DNA of 64,000 nt from an uncultured Chloroflexia bacterium (GCA_963763775.1 CAVXPZ010000001.1:608001-672000), one strand, 5' to 3'. Shown: positions 8,987 to 34,167, counted from the first letter of the stretch. The notes: a model not told the origin generated them from the letters alone. Numbers and translations are program-made.

Positions 8987-10159
8987 TCAGCGGCCCTTGC
9001 CGAGCAGCGACCGCGCCAACACGAGACGTTGGATCTGCTGAGTCCCCTCGTACAGCTGGGTGATCTTCGCGTCGCGCATCATCCGCTCGACGGGGAACTC
9101 ATCGATATAGCCGTATCCGCCCATGACCTGGACGGCATCGGTCGTGACCCGCATCGCGGTGTCGCCGGCCACGAGTTTACACATCGCCGACCACCGGCCG
9201 GCGTCCGGGGCTCCGGCGTCGATCTCGACGCACGCCTTGTACAGGAGCTGGCGTGCCGCCTCGGTCCCGGCGTCCATGTCGGCGAGCATCGCCCCGACCA
9301 TCTGGAAGTCGCCGATGCGCTGCCCGAACTGCTTGCGCTCCTTCGCGTACGCGGTGGCCGCTTCGAGCGCGCCCTGGGCGATCCCGACGGCCTGGGCCGC
9401 GATCCCCGGCCGGCTCCGGTCGAGCGTGCGCATCGCGAGGTCGAACCCCTCGCCCTCCGCCCCGATCCGGTTCGCCGCCGGGACCCTCACGCCCTCGAAG
9501 GTGAGCTCGGCCGTGGGACTGCCCCGGAGACCCATCTTGTGTTCGAGCCGAGCGACCGCGAACCCGGCGGTCGGCACCTCGACGATGAAGCACGACATCC
9601 GCCGGTGGCGGGTGGCATCGGGGTTCGTGACCGCGAAGACCGTGACGAGATCGGCGACCGATCCCTGGCTGATGAAGCGCTTGGATCCGGTGAGCACGTA
9701 GTCGTCGCCGTCGCGCACCGCCCGCGTCCGGCCGGCCGCCGCATCGGAGCCGGCCTCGGCCTCGGTCAGGGCGAAGGCGATCAGACGTTCGCCGGTCGCC
9801 AGGCTCGGGACCCACCGGGCGTGCTGCTCCGCCGTCCCGGCCATGAGGAGCGGCAGGGCGGCCAGCTCCTGCACCGCCAGGATGAGCCCGGTCGTGGCAC
9901 AGGCGCGGCTCAACTGTTCGATGGCGAGGCAGATCGTCAGCAGGTCGGCGCCCAGCCCGCCGTGTTCGACCGGGAACGGCAGCGCGAAGATGTCGTTCGC
10001 CGCCAGCAGGTCCTTGATGTCCCACGGGAACTCGGCGGCCCGATCGACCTCGGCGGCGCGTGGGGCGACCCGCTCGTCGGCGAGGACCCGGACGGCATCG
10101 CGCATGAGGCGCTGGTCCTCGGTCAGGCGATAGGTCGGCGGCTCGGTCGGCGTGGTCAC
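8987..10159 (-). CDS. Acyl-CoA dehydrogenase
   Basis: FALTEAEAGSD, GSKRFIS, KMGLRGS, R.QFG, GGYGY, IYEGT-like LYEGT motifs. Confidence 0.95.
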   Translation of the reverse strand: MTTPTEPPTYRLTEDQRLMRDAVRVLADERVAPRAAEVDRAAEFPWDIKDLLAANDIFALPFPVEHGGLGADLLTICLAIEQLSRACATTGLILAVQELAALPLLMAGTAEQHARWVPSLATGERLIAFALTEAEAGSDAAAGRTRAVRDGDDYVLTGSKRFISQGSVADLVTVFAVTNPDATRHRRMSCFIVEVPTAGFAVARLEHKMGLRGSPTAELTFEGVRVPAANRIGAEGEGFDLAMRTLDRSRPGIAAQAVGIAQGALEAATAYAKERKQFGQRIGDFQMVGAMLADMDAGTEAARQLLYKACVEIDAGAPDAGRWSAMCKLVAGDTAMRVTTDAVQVMGGYGYIDEFPVERMMRDAKITQLYEGTQQIQRLVLARSLLGKGR

Positions 10160-15508: not shown

Positions 15509-16852
15509 TCAGGGTCGGTCGAGCCACCATAGCGCGACGTCGGCACCCGCGGGCAGCCCGGCGACATCCTCCGGGACGATCGCGAGCGCATCGGCGATCG
15601 CCAGCGCGGAGATCACGTGACTCCCCTGCCCTCGCGAGCCCCCGGCGAGATGCACGTGCGCCCGGCCCGCCGCGTCACGGACGACGCCGCCATCCGCGTC
15701 GCGCTCGGCGACCACGCGGATGAACGCGCGCCGCCCTTCGCTCTTCGTGACGGCTTCATCGAGGACGGCCCGGTCGGACGGCCGCAGCAGGTCGTGGCGG
15801 CCGCTGAGCGAGCGGATCGCCGGCCGCACGAAGAGCTCGAAGGTCACGGCGCTCGAGACGGGGTTCCCGGGCAGTCCGAGGATCAGCACGGGCCGGCCGC
15901 CAGTCCGCCGCGGCGCCGTCCCGAACGCGAAGGGTTTGCCGGGCTGGACCGCGACGCGCCAGAGGTCCACCGTCCCGATGGTCTCCATGGCGGTCTTGAC
16001 CACGTCGAACGGCCCGACCGAGACGCCGCCGGACACGATGATCAGGTCAGCCCCGGCGTCGAGCGCCTGCTGGAGGCGGGCGAGCACGTCGTCGAGCACG
16101 TCCCGGGCGATCCCGAGGTCGATGACGTCCGCCCCCGCGGTCGTCGCGAGCGCGCGAAGGCTCGGGCCGTTCGCGTCGGGGATGCCGGCCGCCCCGAGCG
16201 GCTCGCCGGGACGCCGGACCTCGTCGCCCGTCGCCAGGACGGCCACGCGCGGCCGGCGGTGGACGTCGATCTCGTCGACGCCGGCGCCGGCAAGCAGGGC
16301 GACCATCGCGGCGCCGATGGGCGCCCCGGGCTCCGCCAGCACCGCGTCGGCGCGGAGGTCGCTGCCCTCGGGTCGGATCGAGCCACCCGGGGGCACCGCC
16401 TCGTGCACGAGGATCGCGGCCGGCAGCGGGCCGGCGGCCTCACGCCCTCGCGGGCCGGCGGCGTCCGCGGCGTCCAGCGGCGTCGTGGCCTCGACCGGGA
16501 CGACCGCGTCGGAACCGTCCGGGACACGCGCGCCCGTCGCGATGCGGACGGCGGTCCCGGGCCGCACGGAGACATCGGGGGCGACGCCGGCGCGGACCTC
16601 GCCGACGACCGCGAGGCGTGCCGGCGCGTCCTCCGTCGCCGTCGTCGTGTCGGCCGCGACGATCGCATAGCCGTCCATCGCCGAGTTCGGCCACGGCGGG
16701 AGCGAGGTCCGCGCGACGACGGTCCGTGCGACGACTCGCCCGAGCGAATCGGTGACCAGGACACGCTCCGCCGGCAACGGGTCGGCCGCCGCCAGGACGC
16801 GGTCCCGCGCCGCCTCGACGCTGAGCATCCGACCGGCGCCAGCCGTGTTCAC
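15509..16852 (-). CDS. moeA: Molybdopterin molybdotransferase
   Basis: SAMDGYA, IATGA.VP, TGDEV, SGGVSVG, PGKP, LPGNPVS. Confidence 0.93.
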   Translation of the reverse strand: MNTAGAGRMLSVEAARDRVLAAADPLPAERVLVTDSLGRVVARTVVARTSLPPWPNSAMDGYAIVAADTTTATEDAPARLAVVGEVRAGVAPDVSVRPGTAVRIATGARVPDGSDAVVPVEATTPLDAADAAGPRGREAAGPLPAAILVHEAVPPGGSIRPEGSDLRADAVLAEPGAPIGAAMVALLAGAGVDEIDVHRRPRVAVLATGDEVRRPGEPLGAAGIPDANGPSLRALATTAGADVIDLGIARDVLDDVLARLQQALDAGADLIIVSGGVSVGPFDVVKTAMETIGTVDLWRVAVQPGKPFAFGTAPRRTGGRPVLILGLPGNPVSSAVTFELFVRPAIRSLSGRHDLLRPSDRAVLDEAVTKSEGRRAFIRVVAERDADGGVVRDAAGRAHVHLAGGSRGQGSHVISALAIADALAIVPEDVAGLPAGADVALWWLDRP

Positions 16853-17987
16853 CATCCGGCGATCCCCGACTCGGACGCGCGCGCCCGGAGCACGTCCGCG
16901 ATGGACCGGCGCATGACCATCCCGGACAGCACGCCGTCCTCCACGACCGGCAGCCCGTCGAGGCTCGACCGCGCCAGGTCGTCGATCGCGGACTGGACCG
17001 TCGTCGCCGGCCCCACGATCGGCAGGGCATTCCCGCTCGACCATCACGTCCTCGACCCGCGTCGAGGCCCACCGGTCCGGTCGGACCTTGCGCAGCTGCC
17101 GGGCGCCGATGATCCCGAGCAGCTCGGTCCCGCGCATCACCGGGAGCGCCATGGCCGCCGAGCCGCCGAGCACCTGGCTCGCGAACGTGTCGATGCTGAG
17201 GCCGGGCGAGACCGCCGCGACATCGCGGTCCATGACATCCCGGACGAACAGGCCGTCGAGGACCGCGTCGATCCCCGCGCGCCGTTCGACGCCGCGAGCC
17301 GTGGAGGTCAGGAACCACCCACCGAGGGCGATCATCAGCCCGTCGAGCGGCTCGAGCACGAAGATCCCGACCACCCCGAGGACGGCGATCACGAGCCCGA
17401 CGGACCGCCCGACGGCCGCAGCCGACCCGAGGGCCGACCGTGCGTCGCCCGACCGCGCCCAGGCGATGGCCCGTACGACCCGGCCGCCGTCCAGCGGGTA
17501 GGCCGGCAGCAGGTTCAGCAGGCCGAGGGCGACATCCAGCGTCCCGACGATGAGGGCGGTGCTGCCGACGGCGGTCGCGATCGGCGTGTCGGTGGCGTCC
17601 ACCGCAGCGGCCACGACCAGCAACGCGGCACCGATGGCCAGGCTCGCGAGCGGTCCGGCGAGCGCGGCGGCGATCTCGTCGCGTGGACGCGTCGTCTCGA
17701 GCGCGGGCGTGGCGGCCGCGCCGAGGAAGTACACGACGACCGACGGTCGTCTTCGCGCCGCGACGCCTCGCCACGAGGGCGTGCGCCACCTCGTGGACGA
17801 CGGCCGAGAGCAGGAACCCGACCGCGACCGCCACGCCGATGCCCCAACGCATGGCCGTGGAGGTCACCGGGTCCACGACGCCGACCTGGGACGCGACGGT
17901 GACCACGATGAGCGCGAGGATGATCGCCCACGAGGCATGGACGCGGATCGAGAGGCCCGCGATGCGGCCGAGCGGGAACGTGCTCAT
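16849..17987 (-). CDS. Site-2 protease (M50) with CBS domains (indels near 17030 and 17745)
   Basis: HEVAH (HExxH), AGP, NLLPAYPLDGG, VRDVM/VEDVM CBS motifs. Confidence 0.85.
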
Positions 17988-19985: not shown

Positions 19986-20885
19986 TTGCCCGCCCGTCGA
20001 CCCTTTGCCCTCGCGCTGACCGCTGCCGCGATCGCGCTGCTCGCCCTCGTTCCGGCGTCCGTCTCGGCCGCGAGCTCCGTCGTGGAGTGCGGCCAGCTCG
20101 CGGCGTACACCGCGCCGGATCCCCTCGGACCGACCGACGGCAGCGTCCAGCTGGGCCTCTCGGACACGTGGACCATCAACGCCGACGCGACGCTTTCCGC
20201 CGAGGCGGCCGCCGCGCTGCCGAGCGGCTCGGGCAACGGCCCCACCTGCCTGGCGATGGACCTCGACGACAGCGGCCACGTCACGGCGCTCGACTTCTCG
20301 CCGACCGGCAGCCTGAGCGGGCACGTCGCGTTCGATTCGGGCTCGGGGTACTACATCCTCGCGGGTCGGCTCATCGTCCCGACCTTCGTGACCGACGCCA
20401 ACCCGGGCCTCGCGGCCCTGTTCGTGCCGAGCTACCAGGCCGGCACGGTCCTGACGATCTCGTTCACGGTCGACACGACCAGCGGCGGCTTCACCGGCTT
20501 CGACGGGCATGCCGCGTTCTGCGGCAAGGGCAGCGTCACGTCGGGCGGCGACGGGAAGGTCGGGAAGGCCATCATCCCGGCGTCGGTGCTCGACGCCGCT
20601 GACATCAAGGCCCTCAAGGGCGCCGGCAGCCGCACGACGTGCGCCACCGTGCACTCGGTCGGGACGATCGACGCCCAGACCGGGGCACTCAACATCACGA
20701 CGAACGTGTCGATCAAGGTCGCCGCGGCCGGCGCCACGATCACGCCGCCACCGACCTACACCGACGCCGCGGCGGTCGCGCCGGCAGCGGGATCGGGCGC
20801 GCCGATCGTGGCGTGGCTGACGGTCGTCTTCTCCGTCGCCCTCGCGCTTGCCGCCCGCCACGGCCGAGCGCGGTCCAGGTCATGA
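19986..20885 (+). CDS. Secreted beta-rich protein with C-terminal anchor
   Basis: Signal peptide; TPPPTYT motif, TM helix and Arg-rich tail at the C-terminus. Confidence 0.75.
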   Translation: MPARRPFALALTAAAIALLALVPASVSAASSVVECGQLAAYTAPDPLGPTDGSVQLGLSDTWTINADATLSAEAAAALPSGSGNGPTCLAMDLDDSGHVTALDFSPTGSLSGHVAFDSGSGYYILAGRLIVPTFVTDANPGLAALFVPSYQAGTVLTISFTVDTTSGGFTGFDGHAAFCGKGSVTSGGDGKVGKAIIPASVLDAADIKALKGAGSRTTCATVHSVGTIDAQTGALNITTNVSIKVAAAGATITPPPTYTDAAAVAPAAGSGAPIVAWLTVVFSVALALAARHGRARSRS

Positions 20886-20968: not shown

Positions 20969-21151
20969 TTGACAGCCCTCTATCTCCGCGTCATGGACCT
21001 CGTCAGCCGCGCTGACGACGACGACCGCGGGCAGGGACTGGCGGAGTACGCCCTCATCCTCGCCCTGATCGCGATCGTCGCGATCATCGCCCTCATCTTC
21101 CTCGGTGGACAGGTGAGCAAGATCCTGAGCACGGTCGGCAAGTCGATCTAG
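20969..21151 (+). CDS. flp: Flp family type IV (Tad) pilin
   Basis: RG|QGLAEYALILALIAIV prepilin/Flp motif, 60 aa, AGGAG RBS. Confidence 0.93.
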   Translation: MTALYLRVMDLVSRADDDDRGQGLAEYALILALIAIVAIIALIFLGGQVSKILSTVGKSI

Positions 21152-25886: not shown

Positions 25887-26479
25887 GACGCGCGCCCCAC
25901 GCGCATCGGTCCGACCGGCCGTCCGGCCGCCGAATCGGTGATCAGCGCGGCCATCCGCCGCTCGCGCGTCGCTGCCTGCTTGGCGCTCGTCACCCAGTGC
26001 GTGACGGTCCGCCGATATGACGGCGACCGCCGCTCCCAGTCGGCCCACGCGGCGGGCACGTCCTGCAGGGCCGCGATCTCGGCCTCGGAGAAGACGGCGG
26101 CCTCGCGCTCATACGAGTAGATCGCGGTCTTCTCCGGCGAGCGGGCGTCGAAGGCTGCGAGACCGGCCGGCCGCATCCGGCCCGCCGCCGTCAGGGCCTC
26201 GACCTTCGCCACGTTGATGGCGCTCCAGTTGCTCCCCTTGCGCCGCGGCGTGAACCGCTGCGCGTACGACATCTCGTCGAGGCTGTATCGGACCCCGTCG
26301 ATCCACCCGACGCACAGCGCCTCGTCGACCGAGGACGACCAGTCCACGCTCGGGCGGCCGGTCGCCTTGCGGTAGGCGCCGAGCCAGAGCTCGTCCGCGG
26401 TCGCATGGTTCGCGTCGAACCAGTCGCGGAGCTCCTCGGATGACGCGAAGAACCGGACATCGCGCGGCGTGAGCTTCAA
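25883..26479 (-). CDS. YdeI/OmpD-associated family protein
   Basis: EALCVGWIDG, RFTPRRKGSNWSAIN, WVTSAKQ..TRERR. Confidence 0.9.
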   Translation of the reverse strand: MKLTPRDVRFFASSEELRDWFDANHATADELWLGAYRKATGRPSVDWSSSVDEALCVGWIDGVRYSLDEMSYAQRFTPRRKGSNWSAINVAKVEALTAAGRMRPAGLAAFDARSPEKTAIYSYEREAAVFSEAEIAALQDVPAAWADWERRSPSYRRTVTHWVTSAKQAATRERRMAALITDSAAGRPVGPMRVGRAS

Positions 26480-27955
26480 CGTGGCGCCGCCTCGCGCAAC
26501 AACGCCCAGACCCGCTCGACGTGGCGCTGCTCCGTCCGCAGGTTCCCGAGCGAGACCCGGATCGTGAACTGCCCGGCGAGCCGGGTGTGCGAGAGGAAGA
26601 CCTCGCCGGTCCGGTTGACGGCGTCCATGATCGCCGCGTTCGCGTCGTCGAGGGCCTCGTCGGCGCCGGTCCAGCCGCGTGGGCGCCAGCGGAAGCAGAC
26701 GGTCGAGAACGGGACGGGCGCCAGTCGCTCCCAGTCTGGATCGGCCTCGACCTGCGCGGCGAACCACTCGGCCATCTCGAGGTGTTGCCGGATCCGCCGT
26801 CGCAGCCCCTCGAGCCCGAACCAGCGGAGCAGCATCCAGAGCTTGAGCGCCCGGAAGCGTCGGCCGAGCTGCGGTGTGTACTCGTTGTAGTCGTGGACCG
26901 GCGTGGCACGGTCCAGGGTCCGCAGGTACTCCGGCACGAGGCTGAACGCCGCCCGCAGCACGTCCATCCGCCTCGACAGCAGCAGCGAGGCGTCCATCGG
27001 CGTGAACAGCCACTTGTGCGGGTTGACGACGATCGAGTCCGCTCGCTCCCAGCCGGCGAACGGCTCGCGGCGCTCCGGGAGCAGCGCGACGGCCCCGGCA
27101 TACGCCGAATCGACGTGCAGCCAGACGCCCTCCGCCTCCGCCACAGCCGCGACGTCAGCGACCGAGTCCACCGACGTGGACGATGTCGTGCCGACCGTCG
27201 CGACGATGGCGATCGGCCGCCGGCCCGCGGTGCGGTCCTCCTCGATCGCCGCGCTGAGCGCCTCGACGCGCATCTCGAAGCGGTCGTTCGCCGGGATCCG
27301 GACGAGCGCGTCACGCCCGAGTCCCAGCGTCATGCAGGCCTTCTCGATCGAGCTGTGCGCCTCGGTGGACGCGTAGACGCGCAGGGCCGGGAGATCCGGT
27401 CGCCCGGTCAGCCCGTGCTGGGCGACGTCGAAGCCGGCGGCTTCGCGCGCCGCGGCGAGCGCGATCAGCGAGGACGTCGAGGCTGTGTCCGTGATGAGCC
27501 CGTCGAAGGTCTCCGGCAACCCGAGCGCCTGGCGCAGCCAGTCGACGACGACCTGCTCGAGCTCCGTGCCGATCGGCGAGGTCCGCCACAGCATCGGGTT
27601 CTGGCCGATCGTGGCGGTCAGCATCTCGCCGAGGATCCCGGGACTGGACGCGGTGGTCGCGAAGTACGCCATGAAGCCCGGGTGCTGCCACTGGGTCGCG
27701 TTGGGTTCGACGAGCCGCTGGTAGTCCGCCAGGATCGCCTCGAGCGCCTCCGGGTCCTCCGGCGCGCTCGTCGGGAACTGCGGTCGCAGCGACCCGGGTT
27801 CGATGGACGGGAAGACGTCGCGCGACTCGACCGTCTCGAGGTAGTCCGCCATGAGATCGGCGACGGCGTGGGCCGCGGCACGGAAGTCGTCGGGCGCCAT
27901 GTCGCCGAACTCGGGCGTGGTCGCCGGGAGCGCGGTGCGCGGCTCGCTGAGTCAT
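26476..27955 (-). CDS. PLP-dependent group II (aromatic-L-amino-acid-type) decarboxylase
   Basis: WQHPGFMAYF, AHSSIEK, GTT, WLHVDSAY, NPHKW; ATG 27955 needs an indel, otherwise start is 27900. Confidence 0.92.
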
Positions 27956-27999: not shown

Positions 28000-29018
28000 T
28001 CAGATGGATTCGCCGACCGTGGAGAGGATCGTGCTGACCTGGCCGCCGAGGAAGATGAGCGCGACGATCGAGACCACGAAGATCAGGAACAGGATCCCGA
28101 TCACGAGGAGGCACGCCATCGCGAGGCCACCGGAGCCTGCGCCTGCCGGTCGGACGAGCGCCGTGTTGGCAAATCGGTCGTGCAGGCCCTGTTTCGTGGA
28201 GCTCGTCGCCGTCGTGATCAGGAGCGCGATGACCCACACCAGCTGGATCAGCGAGCTGGTGCCAGCCAGGGCCGGGGCCAATGCCAGCAACCCGATCCAG
28301 ATGCCGTACCCGGCCCAGCGGCGGACCGCCTGCTCGAGCGTCAGGGACCGGCCGTCGAACGCGTTGCCGACCTGGATGTTGAAGATGCGCTGGCCCGGGC
28401 TTGCGCGCCGGCCACCGGTCCAGAAGAAGACGAAGTACACGAGGCTGAGGATGACCAGCGGCACGGTGAACGCGGCCCCGGTGACATTGGTGTAGTAGGA
28501 GGCCGACGTGCCGTCCGCGCTCTGCCGGATCGTCGTGGTCCCGGCACCGAGGAGACCGCCGATGAATCCCCCGACGATCCCGAGGATGATCAGGTCGACG
28601 ATGTACCCGACCAGGCGCGGCGCCGTCCCGGCGAAGGACAGGCCGGGCGCGCCCGGGACCTCGACGGCCTTGGGCGGGGCGGCCCAGCCCACGGCCGGTG
28701 CCGCGGGTCCGGACGGTGGCGCGCCGGCGGCGGGCGCCTGGCCTTCTGGCGCGCCCCAACCGACCGGCGCCGCGGAGATGAGCCCGGCAGCGGGCGCGGC
28801 GGCCTCGACGGCCGGCGCCGCCACGTCGGGGGTCGGCACGACCTCGGTCGGCGTCGCGTCCTGGGTCGGCGGGTGGGCGTCGGTCGGCGCATCACCGGCG
28901 CTCGGTCGGCCTCTCCGGCGTCCGCGGGCGGCTCTGCGTGCGCGCCAGGGTCGTCCGGTTTGGCGTCCCAGGGCATCGGTCGCGGCGTGGGGTCCTCGGG
29001 CGGCGTGGCGTCGCTCAT
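28000..29018 (-). CDS. RDD family membrane protein with Pro/Ala-rich N-terminus and Flp-pilin-like C-terminal tail (indel near 28915)
   Basis: RLVGYIVD, YF..FW...SPGQR, KQGLHDRFANT RDD motifs. Confidence 0.88.
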
Positions 29019-29139
29019 GCGTGCAATGTAGGCCGCCGACGCAAGGGATGTACGCCGAATCCGACGTGTCGGTCCGATGAGGGCCGGGTGTAGCCTTTGG
29101 ACGGGTCGACTCCGACCGCAGCCGCAGAGGCAACGCAGC

Positions 29140-31429: not shown

Positions 31430-32476
31430 TCAGCTCTCGCGGCGACCGAGCCCCGCAAGCCACGCGGAGGCGTCGGCGAGCTCGTCCTTCGATTCGCGGG
31501 CGAGCAGGTCGACCAGGCAGCGCTGCACGCTCTTGCCCTCGAACAGCGCCAGCTCGACCTGGCGGGCGATGGGCAGCTCGACACCGAGCCGGGCGGCGAG
31601 GGCCAACGCGGCCTTGACGGTGTAAGCACCCTCGGCCGTGCCCGGCATGGTGGCCTCGATCTCGGCCCACGACCGGCCTTTCGCGAGCTCTTCGCCGAGA
31701 CGGTGGTTCCGGGAGAGCTGCGACCCGCAGGTCGCGATCAGGTCGCCCATGCCGGCGAGCCCGGCGAAGGTCAGCGGATTCGCGCCCGCCGCCATCCCGA
31801 GCCGCATCATCTCCGCGAGCCCCCGGGTGAGCAGCCCGGCCTTGCCGTTGTCGCCGAACCCGAGCCCGTCCGCCGCGCCGGCCGCGATCGCGACCACGTT
31901 CTTGAGGGCGCCAGCCAGCTCCACCCCGAGGATGTCCTCGTTGACGTAGAGGCGGAACCGGCGCCGAGCGAGCCGCGCGACGATCCGCCCGGCGAGGGCG
32001 AGGTCGGACGACGCCACGACCGCCGACGTCGGCAGGTTCCGGGCGACTTCCGCCGCGAGGTTGGGGCCCGACAGGGCCGCGACCCGTGTCGCCGGCACGC
32101 CGCTCGCCTCGGCGACGACTTCGCTCATCCGCCGGAGTGAGCCCGGCTCGAGGCCCTTGACCACGGAGAGCCGGTCCGCGGATGGCGCCAGGAACGGTGC
32201 GCACGCCTCGACCGTGGCCCGGAGGTGGGCCGAGGGCGCGGCGAAGAGCACGAGATCGGTCGCGTCGCGAAGCGCCGCCGGGTCGGCGGTCGCGATCACG
32301 GTCGCGGGCAAGTCCACACCCGGGAGCCGCGGCTCGTTGCGTCCGGTCGCCGTGATCCGTGCCGCGGTCTCCGGGGAGTGGCACAGGAGCGTGACGGGCT
32401 CGACCCGGGCGACGAGCCGGGCGAGGGTGGTCCCCCAGGCGCCGGCGCCGATGACGGCGACGGCCGGACCCACCAT
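31430..32476 (-). CDS. gpsA: NAD(P)H-dependent glycerol-3-phosphate dehydrogenase
   Basis: GAGAWGT, LSGPNLA.E, GVELAGALKNV, GLAGMGDL, SRN. Confidence 0.96.
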   Translation of the reverse strand: MVGPAVAVIGAGAWGTTLARLVARVEPVTLLCHSPETAARITATGRNEPRLPGVDLPATVIATADPAALRDATDLVLFAAPSAHLRATVEACAPFLAPSADRLSVVKGLEPGSLRRMSEVVAEASGVPATRVAALSGPNLAAEVARNLPTSAVVASSDLALAGRIVARLARRRFRLYVNEDILGVELAGALKNVVAIAAGAADGLGFGDNGKAGLLTRGLAEMMRLGMAAGANPLTFAGLAGMGDLIATCGSQLSRNHRLGEELAKGRSWAEIEATMPGTAEGAYTVKAALALAARLGVELPIARQVELALFEGKSVQRCLVDLLARESKDELADASAWLAGLGRRES

Positions 32477-34167
32477 CAGTGCGGGCGGCGCGCCTTGCTC
32501 GCGCTCGCTCGGCCGGCCGGCTTGGCCCCCTTGGCGGCGCCGGACTTCGTGCCCTTCGGCACGCCCGGCTTGGCGGCCTTCGCGGCGGCCCCCGGCGATT
32601 GGCGCTTCTTGCGCGGCAGCTTCACCGACGCTCGGTCGCGGAACACGAGCTTGATCGGCGTGCCGTCGAACCCGAACGTCTCACGGAGGCGGTTCTCCAG
32701 GTACCGGCGATAGCTGAAATGCACGGCCGAGGCGTCCGAGGCGAAGAAGACGAACGTGGGCGGCGCGATCGCGGCCTGGGTCGCATAGAAGATCTTCGGC
32801 CGGCGGCCGCGGACCGGCGGCGGCGGGGTCCGTTCGGTCGCGGCATTGAGCATCCGGTTGAGCCCGCCGGTCGAGATCCGGCGACGACGCTCCGCCCAGA
32901 TGTCGACGGCCGCCTCGAGGACGCGGCCGACGCGCTGGCCGGTCTTGGCGCTGATCGAGACGATCGGGGCGAAGTCGATGAACGGGACCTCGTTGCGGAT
33001 CCATTCGACGTACTGGTCGAAGGTCCGGTCGGTCTTCTCCTCGAGCAGGTCCCACTTGTTGACCGCGATGACGAGGCCCTTGCCCTCCTCGACCGCATAC
33101 CCCGCGACGTGCGCGTCCTGGGCGGTGAGGCCCTCGACCGCGTCGATGACGAGGACGGCGACGTCCGCCCGCGACAACGCCCGGAGCGCGCGGAGGGTGG
33201 AGTACTTGTCCGCCGCGGGACCGTTCGCCACCTTGCCGCGACGGCGGATCCCGGCGGTGTCGATGAGGATGACCTCGCTGCGGCCCCACGCGAGCCGCGT
33301 ATCGATGGCGTCGCGCGTCGTCCCCGGGACCGCCGACACGATCGAGCGCTCCTCGCCGAGGAGCGCGTTCAGCAGGCTCGACTTGCCCACGTTCGGCCGG
33401 CCGATGAACGCGATGGCCGCCGGTTCGGTGTCCGCCTCCGCGGCGATGGCCGCGTCCCACTTGGCCGCCTCCGGGTCGATCTCGAGGCTCGCGTCGGCAT
33501 CGGCGTCGGTGTCGCCGTCGACGCCTCGCCGTCATCGTCGTCTTCCTCGCCGTCCTCGCCCGACGACGAACGGCTCCAACCGACCCGCCGCGACCTCGTC
33601 GGCCCACGCCTCCGCCTCGGCGTCGCGAGTCTTGCGCGCGAGCTCCTGGTCGCTCTCGGGCGGCAGCGACCACACGACCGCGTCGAGCAGGTCGGCGGTC
33701 CCGCGGCCATGCGACGCGGAGATCGCGTACGTCTCCTCCCATCCGAGCGAGTAGAACTCGGCGCCCTCGAGCTCGCGCTTCTCGTTGTCGGCCTTGTTCA
33801 CCGCGACGATCACCGGAGCCTTCGCCCGTCGCAGGATCTCGGCGGCCTCGTAGTCAGCGGGCGTCAGCCCGGCGGCGGCGTCCCCGACGAACACGATGAC
33901 GTCGGCCTCGGCGATGGCGAGCCGGGCCTGCTCCTGGACACGCGCCTCGATCGGGTCGTCCGGGTCGAGCTCGAGGCCGCCCGTGTCGACGATGACGAAG
34001 CGCCGGCCGTTCCACTCGGCATCGCCGTAGAGGCGGTCGCGGGTCGTTCGCGCCCGGTCCTCGACGATGGCCGTCCGGCCGCCGACGATCCGGTTGAAGA
34101 GCGTGCTCTTGCCGACGTTCGGCCGTCCGACGATGGCGACGACCGGGAGGCCGCTGGTCCCGCTCAC
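32476..34167 (-). CDS. der: Ribosome biogenesis GTPase Der (indels in the linker, about 33520-33570)
   Basis: Two [12 protein letters not shown]/DTxG/NKxD GTPase domains plus KH-like PPTF domain. Confidence 0.93.

Follow-up and report, generated by a model that had tools for sequence, protein, structure and literature searches.

The gene under study encodes an RDD-family membrane protein and lies, together with an orphan Flp prepilin gene, in the window, i.e., the whole stretch of 64,000 nucleotides that was analysed. The host is an uncultured soil Chloroflexota bacterium (G000), whose genome of 3.3 Mb is assembled in four contigs with 71% G+C. The RDD gene is flanked by an acetyltransferase gene on one side and by a PLP-dependent decarboxylase gene on the other (Table 1), and a promoter and terminator scan of the interval between the RDD gene and the decarboxylase found none. 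Among the 20 ORFs scanned with Pfam around the RDD gene and the orphan Flp gene (positions 8987–35149), none was a tad gene; the main tad locus lies on contig C3, where three further Flp genes accompany tadB and tadC, and the prepilin peptidase gene is located on contig C4.

Table 1. Features of the RDD gene, its C-terminal extension, and associated genes, with positions counted from the first letter of the window.
Feature	Position	Strand	Basis or remark
Orphan Flp prepilin, 60 aa	20969..21151	+	TTG start; GQGLAEY processing motif; counterpart codons 21089–21148
PLP-dependent decarboxylase	26476..27900	-	PF00282; 99 bases downstream of the RDD gene, same strand
RDD-family gene as called (P0001), 279 aa	28000..28839	-	GTG start 28839; frame carrying the tail
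Probable true N-terminal Pro-rich cytoplasmic region	28840..29018	-	tblastn of orthologue N-termini
RDD domain, four modelled membrane helices	28165..28632	-	Pfam, residues 168–323 of the 377-aa frame; AF2; K+R counts
C-terminal module, 52 aa as in profile A3	28003..28158	-	Alignment A3; hhalign; AF2 continuous helix 237–278
Module part: Gly/Ser linker		-	
Module part: Cys	28111..28113	-	
Module part: TM helix	28048..28131	-	
Module part: Flp-like tail	28003..28047	-	
Last 20 codons and stop, 18/20 residues as in the Flp C-terminus	28000..28062	-	Codon comparison

The first-pass annotation had let the gene begin at the ATG at 29018, and this start had to be given up: its frame differs from that of the tail, and the 1019 bases concerned are not a multiple of three. 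In tblastn with the orthologue P0003, residues 1–18 matched the frame of the ATG and residues 34–136 matched the frame of the tail. Because the nearest full-length orthologue is thus split over two frames, a one-base frame break is present in the assembled gene at about 28890–28960. The public gene call (P0001) starts at the downstream GTG. On the minus strand, the ORF ends in ALIFLGGQVSTILSTVGESI followed by a stop codon (28000–28002), or, in another excerpt of the same end, GAGSGGLAMACLLVIGILFLIFVVSIVALIFLGGQVSTILSTVGESI.

The RDD domain directly precedes the extension and scored 58.1 bits in Pfam (PF06271, cut-off 24.1), with a match to profile positions 2–137 of 137. Its signature residues are in place, with R75 conserved in at least 90% of 42 sequences and D82 and D221 invariant. 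The usual RDD architecture, in which the protein ends shortly after the HD motif, is seen in untailed relatives, where only 13–14 residues follow this motif, as opposed to 56–62 residues in the tailed forms. As had been read from the window alone, the tail is preceded by the linker GAGSGG and the prepilin motif G-x4-EY is absent from it.

The Flp prepilin of the window (20969–21151, plus strand) ends in ALIFLGGQVSKILSTVGKSI. The description of the RDD tail as a near-copy of this C-terminus was borne out over the last 20 codons, where the two agree in 18 of 20 residues and 49 of 60 bases. Different codons are used for seven of the 18 shared residues (e.g., Ser by TCC in the RDD gene and by AGC in the Flp gene), and the stop codons are unlike (TGA in the RDD gene, TAG in the Flp gene). 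A match of this kind is far beyond chance: within its own genome, a loose motif and the module profile retrieved as tail-like sequences only the RDD gene and the four Flp genes, the latter being found by the module profile at E-values of 1e-11 to 6e-6. A recent duplication had been doubted on the codon differences of this one pair, and the same holds more widely, as in all 13 genomes checked the tail and the nearest own Flp were 2–8 synonymous codon differences apart. Recent gene conversion is thus not what maintains the likeness.

In an alignment of 28 orthologues, the extension opens with a linker rich in Gly and Ser, followed by an invariant Cys, about 22 helical residues, and the tail, with the consensus ...IVALIFLGxQVSxILSxVGxSI. 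Aligned with a Flp profile in hhalign, the extension reached a probability of 98.8% (E-value 1.4e-16) over 33 columns at 73% identity, spanning about residue 8 of the mature pilin to the pilin end, with the cleavage site lying outside. The earlier claim of likeness continuing up the TM helix consequently stands for about 12 further residues and fails beyond them, since the 33 columns stop short of the cleavage-site region. No likeness to Flp is seen in the N-terminal two-thirds of the module helix; the same region is the most conserved part of Flp itself (pN of the Flp TM helix 0.023). Homology to the mature helix and C-terminus of Flp/Fap pilins is hence limited to the distal part of the helix and the tail, in which the conserved positions are the same as in Flp. 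These alignments show descent of the last 31–33 module residues from a mature Flp (Tad, type IVc) pilin. The Pfam model Flp_Fap (PF04964) gave no match to the RDD protein at E-values up to 1, and the Flp of the window itself scored just 21.1 bits for this model, below the cut-off of 32.2. Searches of solved structures and NCBIfam returned no match for the RDD protein or the module.

Orthologous RDD proteins carry the tail in genus g1 and in four more genera of the same Limnocylindria family. In a six-frame search of 41 relatives, RDD matches reached the tail end in most genomes of the genus, and the Flp-like tail was read in 16 of 25 genus-g1 genomes (the full-length matches in G007 and G022 are outside this count). 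The remaining 58 tail-like frames of the fetched regions all belonged to ordinary prepilins carrying GQGLAEYALILALIA. Across a class sample of 251 genomes, an extended RDD protein, i.e., a match running to query position 196 or beyond, was detected in 24, all belonging to family f1 (15 in g1, including the genome under study, 6 of 8 in g3, and one each in g11, g19, and g23). An additional extended match, in family f4, was set aside, as it contains a stop codon. RDD matches elsewhere in f1 and in families f3–f5 end at about position 170. The class tallies include the unpublished genomes G102, G156, and G263, and the Flp-presence tally given below additionally includes the unpublished G122, G126, G131, G139, G145, G182, G189, and G274; none of these carries the module, and they affect only the f3 and f4 counts of untailed RDD proteins and of Flp presence.

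Two larger protein collections were searched. In a set of 5.8 billion proteins, 45 of 48 tail-region matches with lengths of 207–660 residues were RDD proteins (the source label of one match reads ‘Candidatus Limnocylindrales’), and the other three were rejected as carriers because they are over-called frames containing a whole prepilin. Leaderless carriers among longer proteins were likewise rejected: all 15 long matches inspected, drawn from the best 120 of 305 matches beyond which weaker carriers are possible, were over-called ORFs with a complete prepilin. The search for non-pilin carriers suggested by the first-pass annotation was productive with the 52-residue module profile, which retrieved 496 proteins at an E-value of 0.001 or below from 1.84 billion representatives. 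In the best 150 of these 496, most of the first approximately 110 match all 52 positions at their extreme C-terminus, and Flp pilins enter from an E-value of about 5e-8, matching only positions 20–52. From the matches listed, 82 with at least 150 residues and a near-complete module were taken, and 80 of these 82 contain an RDD domain (one of the 80, P0210, has an AcrB-like N-terminal fragment and looks chimeric). The remaining two are P0198, in which a Pro-rich head is joined straight to the module without a membrane core, and P0227, a TM2-domain protein with the module. Among the short library matches, 19 were read: 14 are contig-edge fragments of RDD or TM2 genes, three are Flp pilins or fragments thereof, one is Pro-rich and lacks the Cys, and one is chimera-like.

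An artefact has to be weighed here, whether through misassembly, through an ORF call that reads on into a pilin gene, or through duplication in the very recent past, as over-called ORFs running into complete prepilins are common in databases (3 of 48 tail-region matches and 15 of 15 long matches inspected) and the assembly contains at least one frame break, in the same RDD gene. We give this explanation a negligible chance, given that the RDD tail lacks both a leader and the EY motif, that the same in-frame junction recurs in dozens of independent assemblies and in 80 cluster representatives, and that the tail is synonymously diverged from Flp in every genome checked. The fusion is real, old, and conserved across assemblies.

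The module was also found on a second scaffold. The TM2 domain (PF05154) was detected in P0227 and, among precomputed annotations, in P0313–P0338, and the C-termini of these proteins end in the module. A search with P0227 yielded 50 relatives; of the 38 that were read, many end in ...AIGCLW-helix-LIFLGGQVSxILSxVGxS[IV], and in a few the tail has decayed or is followed by another domain. In more distant groups, TM2 proteins end right after the TM2 domain. In species-representative genomes, nine of the best 80 TM2 loci match to query residue 86 or beyond, all of them in Chloroflexota MAGs; the tail of one (L131) is close to Flp, the others range from intermediate to clearly decayed, and in one of the nine, TPR repeats follow the module. 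The TM2 and RDD modules align in hhalign over 44 gap-free columns, including the Cys, at 59% identity and a probability of 99.0%, which is longer than the alignment of either with Flp (31 columns for TM2 and 33 for RDD). The portable unit comprises about 44 residues, i.e., the invariant Cys, one TM helix, and a Flp-like tail of 13–15 residues. In five genomes with TM2 carriers, RDD matches were untailed in three, and an RDD match was not found in two. No TM2 gene was found in the genome under study (assembly 87% complete), and in the class sample a P0227 relative was present in one genome only (G267), with a decayed tail. The module is thus portable, occurring at the end of TM2-domain proteins in other Chloroflexota in which the RDD proteins have no tail. 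The option least favoured in the first-pass annotation, namely a portable tag common to several membrane proteins, was therefore right in part, in that TM2-domain proteins carry the module.

Such portability would also be expected of a shared recognition tag, where an enzyme or sorting step acting on the Flp C-terminus, e.g., serine glycosylation, would act on the carriers as well and binding to pilins would not be required. In other pili, C-terminal serines are known to receive pilin-specific O-glycosylation, and the same serines and the same glycine recur as conserved positions in Flp and in the RDD and TM2 modules. The existence of carriers with a domain after the tail or with a decayed tail speaks against this reading, which we hold to be decidedly unlikely. 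The few TM2 proteins with a domain after the module further indicate that a free pilin-like C-terminus is not always needed.

The structure of the RDD protein was modelled with AF2 from a 42-row alignment (mean pLDDT 83.1, pTM 0.69). In the model, the RDD domain has four membrane helices; an outer beta-hairpin spans residues 102–117 and one continuous helix spans residues 237–278, and there are three short strands at residues 67–69, 156–159, and 226–231, which probably pair on one face. The N-terminal side, loop 2, and the post-HD segment of the RDD domain form the cytoplasmic face of the model. Mean counts of Lys and Arg per sequence were 4.1 in loop 2, 2.9 in the post-HD segment, 0.6 in loop 1, and 0.05 in the tail. 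As the AF2 model and this charge distribution agree, the HD segment is predicted to be cytoplasmic and the tail to be outside (N-in, C-out), like an unprocessed prepilin in the membrane. The predicted orientation of the HD segment agrees with a remark in one published account, according to which RDD has an intramembrane site facing the cytoplasm (PMC12419801). A complex prediction for RDD residues 60–279 (42 rows) with the Flp prepilin (30 rows), run without controls, returned a score of 0.00 and is evidence for neither side.

The module has the size and the predicted topology of a pilin, and the genome encodes a prepilin peptidase, so that the carrier may be considered a giant prepilin in which the peptidase cuts at the small residue five before the Cys (G-x4-C) and frees a Cys5 minor pilin of 40–42 residues. 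A Gly stands exactly five before the Cys in G000 and in about half of the class-A sequences (defined below), in register with the G-x4-E of Flp. Read by eye, GSGG-LAMA-C is suggestive of a decayed GQG-LAEY; this candidate counts as a minor alternative, as the Flp profile alignment stops about 20 residues short of it. What stands in the place of a prepilin leader and a G-x4-E-Y motif is ...GSGG-LAMA-C-LL... with about 236 residues ahead of it. Several observations make such processing very unlikely: the residue at position -1 is not conserved across the family and is often Ser, Thr, Ala, Val, or Arg; Glu5 and Tyr6 are missing; the alignment with the Flp profile does not extend to the G-x4-C region; and the contig-edge RDD and TM2 fragments among the 19 short library matches read were not accompanied by any stand-alone gene for a Cys5 pilin.

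Three classes of RDD paralogues were distinguished, all of which share the extra helix and the Cys. The Flp-like tail defines class A; in class B, the tail is equally long and has lost the motif (e.g., ...ALVALGPELEELIREMENTI), and in class C it is longer and unrelated. Tandem arrays in the order C-B-A occur in several genomes. The decarboxylase is a conserved neighbour: of 30 class-A loci fetched from genera g1 and g3, 21 contain a decarboxylase match on the flank of the tailed gene. A maximum-likelihood tree was calculated from the RDD domain alone (50 rows, one of which, L020, is poorly filled and has a very long branch). In this tree, the untailed proteins lie on one side of a branch with support 100/94, and class B (89/63) and class C (97/100) form one group each, nested among class-A rows. 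The simplest reading is one gain of the Flp-like extension in the ancestor of several genera of the family, followed by duplication and by decay of the Flp likeness in the additional copies. In G021, G095, and G124, only classes B and C were seen, so that the Flp-like tail is dispensable.

Rates of change were compared between regions. The pN of the tail was 0.35 and that of the RDD domain 0.43, compared to 0.19 in the Flp tail; the tail thus appears to change no faster than the RDD domain, with its conservation somewhat inflated by sequence sets that were picked by tail likeness. The pN/pS values (0.8–0.9 in all regions of the RDD gene and 0.07–0.71 in Flp) are uninformative because synonymous sites are constrained (GC3 of about 0.9) and divergence is deep.

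The co-occurrence of the tail with Flp discriminates nothing since Flp is nearly universal in the class, being present in 207 of 251 class genomes, 71 of 73 f1 genomes, and 24 of 24 genomes with an extended RDD protein. The idea raised earlier that the tail might track the Flp of its own genome received weak support: in 24 genomes, the tail shared on average 13.33 of 20 residues with its own Flp versus 12.69 with others, a small signal whose value was reached in about 12 of 20,000 random reassignments by a statistic that ignores kinship. It is driven by few genomes, chiefly G109, where the tail and Flp both read ...TLLS..., and tail identity to the own Flp ranged from 7 to 19 of 20. Much of the likeness between tail and Flp is explained by a shared ancestral consensus while Flp barely changes.

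These results bear on plain exaptation, in which a pilin-derived helix was captured once and now only serves as an additional membrane helix that helps the RDD or TM2 core to pack or oligomerise, with no link to the Tad system and a likeness to Flp that reflects slow change while Flp stood still. We regard this as a real, if tentative, possibility and as the chief alternative to the reading preferred below. It is in line with the RDD gene being unlinked to tad genes, with the weak tracking and the variable identity (7–19 of 20) to the own Flp, with the drift of classes B and C, which are all that some genomes keep, with the high confidence at which the module helix is modelled as part of the fold, and with the further domain that follows the module in some TM2 proteins. 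On the other hand, an external tail that stays Flp-like on two unrelated scaffolds, that is at least as conserved as the RDD domain, and that is retained in its Flp-like form by one paralogue where several are present would be less readily accounted for by packing.

The reading we prefer, at a probability of roughly 40%, is that the module acts as an uncleaved, membrane-tethered pilin look-alike engaging Flp or the Tad machine. The module would not be cut off and would stay attached, as a tethered look-alike of a pilin, to a small membrane scaffold of the RDD or TM2 kind whose head, Pro-rich or of the zinc-ribbon type, is cytoplasmic. Through it, the scaffold would bind whatever recognises the outer-leaflet part and the external end of membrane-resident Flp, with the Tad platform or further Flp subunits as the proposed partners. 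In this way the carrier may monitor or buffer the pool of pilins; alternatively, it may occupy the pilus base as a non-extractable subunit.

Several known systems share traits with the module. Non-pilin proteins with class III signal peptides, such as the sugar-binding proteins of the archaeal bindosome, also reuse a pilin-derived hydrophobic segment on proteins other than pilins; theirs is N-terminal, cleaved by the peptidase, and keeps the motif, whereas the module stands at the C-terminus behind a polytopic domain and is without the motif. The C-terminal sorting signals LPXTG, PEP-CTERM, and GlyGly-CTERM carry a basic cytoplasmic cluster at their end and run out-to-in. The module resembles them as a portable C-terminal TM unit on unrelated proteins of one lineage, but the combination of motif, TM helix, and basic C-terminal cluster was not found in it, as it ends in ...VGxS[IV], has practically no Lys or Arg after the helix, and is predicted to run in-to-out. 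Intramembrane sensing of the pilin pool has reportedly been described for PilA and PilS of Pseudomonas. In Caulobacter, membrane-resident PilA is sensed by PleC through its TM helix (PMC7196804), and this precedent makes a helix-to-helix reading of the membrane pilin plausible. Contact between a helix and a membrane-resident pilin would be common to PleC/PilS sensing and to the role proposed here; the sensors are histidine kinases without a pilin-like segment, whereas the carrier bears such a segment and has no known signalling domain.

The closest comparison is with Flp/Fap pilins themselves, e.g., PilA of Caulobacter crescentus, which, according to a cryo-EM study, is an all-helical pilin whose polar C-terminal end forms the surface of the Tad filament (PMC10710030). 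The last 31–33 residues of the module are homologous to these pilins; both consist of a single continuous helix with a hydrophobic membrane part followed by a short polar end, and both are predicted to span the membrane once as N-in, C-out (for the module, from the model and the positive-inside counts). The conserved part of the module corresponds to the polar end that forms the pilus surface in Caulobacter (PMC10710030). Unlike these pilins, the module has neither a short leader nor G-x4-EY, its gene lies outside the tad locus, the N-terminal half of its helix is unrelated in sequence and 2–4 residues longer, and an invariant Cys stands where Glu5 would be. Being attached to a multi-pass protein, it would not be extractable as a free subunit. 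A functional parallel among RDD proteins is SppI (YteJ) of Bacillus subtilis, the C-terminal domain of which inhibits the membrane protease SppA (PMC7568657). SppI likewise combines an RDD membrane core with a C-terminal extension, and this extension acts on another membrane complex (PMC7568657); it is not pilin-like and its partner is encoded adjacently (sppA-sppI operon), while no partner gene lies near the carrier described here.

The RDD, TM2, and Flp parts are each known, and their combination is undescribed in the literature searched. The first-pass annotation knew of no RDD-pilin fusion, and none was found in this literature, subscription journals and supplements being outside its scope; the same literature yielded no TM2-pilin fusion either, and among the papers listed for pilin-like C-terminal fusions with Flp none dealt with such a fusion, judged by title and start of abstract. 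Since the module gives no Pfam or NCBIfam match, such fusions are invisible in current annotation.

Tad/Flp pili are widespread organelles of adhesion and surface sensing, and little is understood of how membrane pilins are counted, held, and passed to the machine, particularly in bacteria that lack an outer membrane. The module represents a natural ‘pilin on a leash’, and a pilin-derived end-piece offers a first functional handle on two large families of unknown function (RDD and TM2). Even if it were only a structural helix, it would still be a clean example of a piece of a pilin gene captured and shuffled between membrane protein families. In the furthest-reaching version of the proposed role, which we consider rather doubtful, the module would be a mobile ‘tethered pilin’ cassette by which RDD scaffolds in some Chloroflexota and TM2 scaffolds in others are connected to the Tad pilus base or to the pool of pilins in the membrane. 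If true, monoderm-type bacteria would have, at the foot of the pilus, a non-extractable subunit serving to anchor or terminate the filament or to report its state to the cytoplasm, and this would be a part of type IV pilus machines not previously described.

In four genomes (G024, G180, G161, and G220; loci L124-L127), three RDD paralogues lie in tandem in the order class C (longer, unrelated tail), class B (tail of the same length, motif lost), and class A (Flp-like tail), and these clusters adjoin the same PLP-dependent decarboxylase as the RDD gene of the window. Genome G021 has retained classes C and B beside the decarboxylase; a class A RDD gene was not found at this locus. The tails of the carriers are acidic or neutral (K+R 0.24 and D+E 1.3 per 13 residues in the RDD tails), whereas lysine is frequent in the Flp tails (K+R 0.59, D+E 0.36), and this charge difference is consistent.

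The pilin-like module also occurs in other protein contexts. In some TM2-domain proteins (the one encoded at locus L133, 2782-3888 (+), and proteins P0326, P0329, and P0331), the module is internal rather than terminal: TPR repeats or a further domain come after it and, according to the predicted topology, would be placed outside the cell membrane. Library matches P0198 and P0224 carry a proline-rich head directly on the module, i.e., they have neither an RDD nor a TM2 core, and may be deletion derivatives or mis-assemblies. In P0210, an AcrB-like N-terminal fragment is joined to an RDD protein.

Some of the reading frames listed in the table are suspect. The mismatch in frame between the N-terminus and the rest of the RDD gene points to a one-base indel that either stems from faulty sequencing or truly breaks the gene; with the GTG at 28839 as start, the RDD domain and the module would still be translated. 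The start of the EngA/Der-like ORF falls within the Pfam GTPase profile. Another frame break may interrupt this gene, and that would agree with an indel-prone assembly of 87% completeness. The M50/MoeA frame is probably over-long or composed of two genes, and not a fusion.

Coordinates of the reading frames discussed (window positions)
Feature	Position	Strand	Description
741-aa frame	15509-17734	-	partial M50 peptidase match (residues 13-117), complete MoeA
299-aa protein	19986-20885	+	signal-like N-terminus, hydrophobic C-terminal anchor; no Pfam match
Orphan Flp	20969-21151	+	begins 84 bases downstream of the 299-aa protein gene
5' part of RDD gene	28850-29020	-	probable ATG start (29018), Pro-rich N-terminus; out of frame with remainder of gene
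EngA/Der-like ORF	32476-33390	-	single GTPase domain and KH-like domain only

No tad genes were found near the orphan Flp gene. In related genomes, the frames 5' of Flp genes are frequently open, resulting in over-called proteins in databases. Four library matches (P0046, P0077, P0085, and P0151) are HisKA_3 histidine-kinase frames that continue into a complete Flp prepilin, and these look like over-called or frame-shifted products.

Beside the main Flp type, two more types were observed in most genomes (loci L022, L025, L027, L030, L034, L036, L038, L043, L045-L047, and L050, among others). One is characterized by ...SQ[IV]SDKLS[VI][IV]G... and is commonly extended to a longer terminus, ...LNSVAP; the other, more distant type reads GQGLVEYGLILAL...IDAATGG. 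Together with the main type, they constitute a conserved three-type pilin repertoire.
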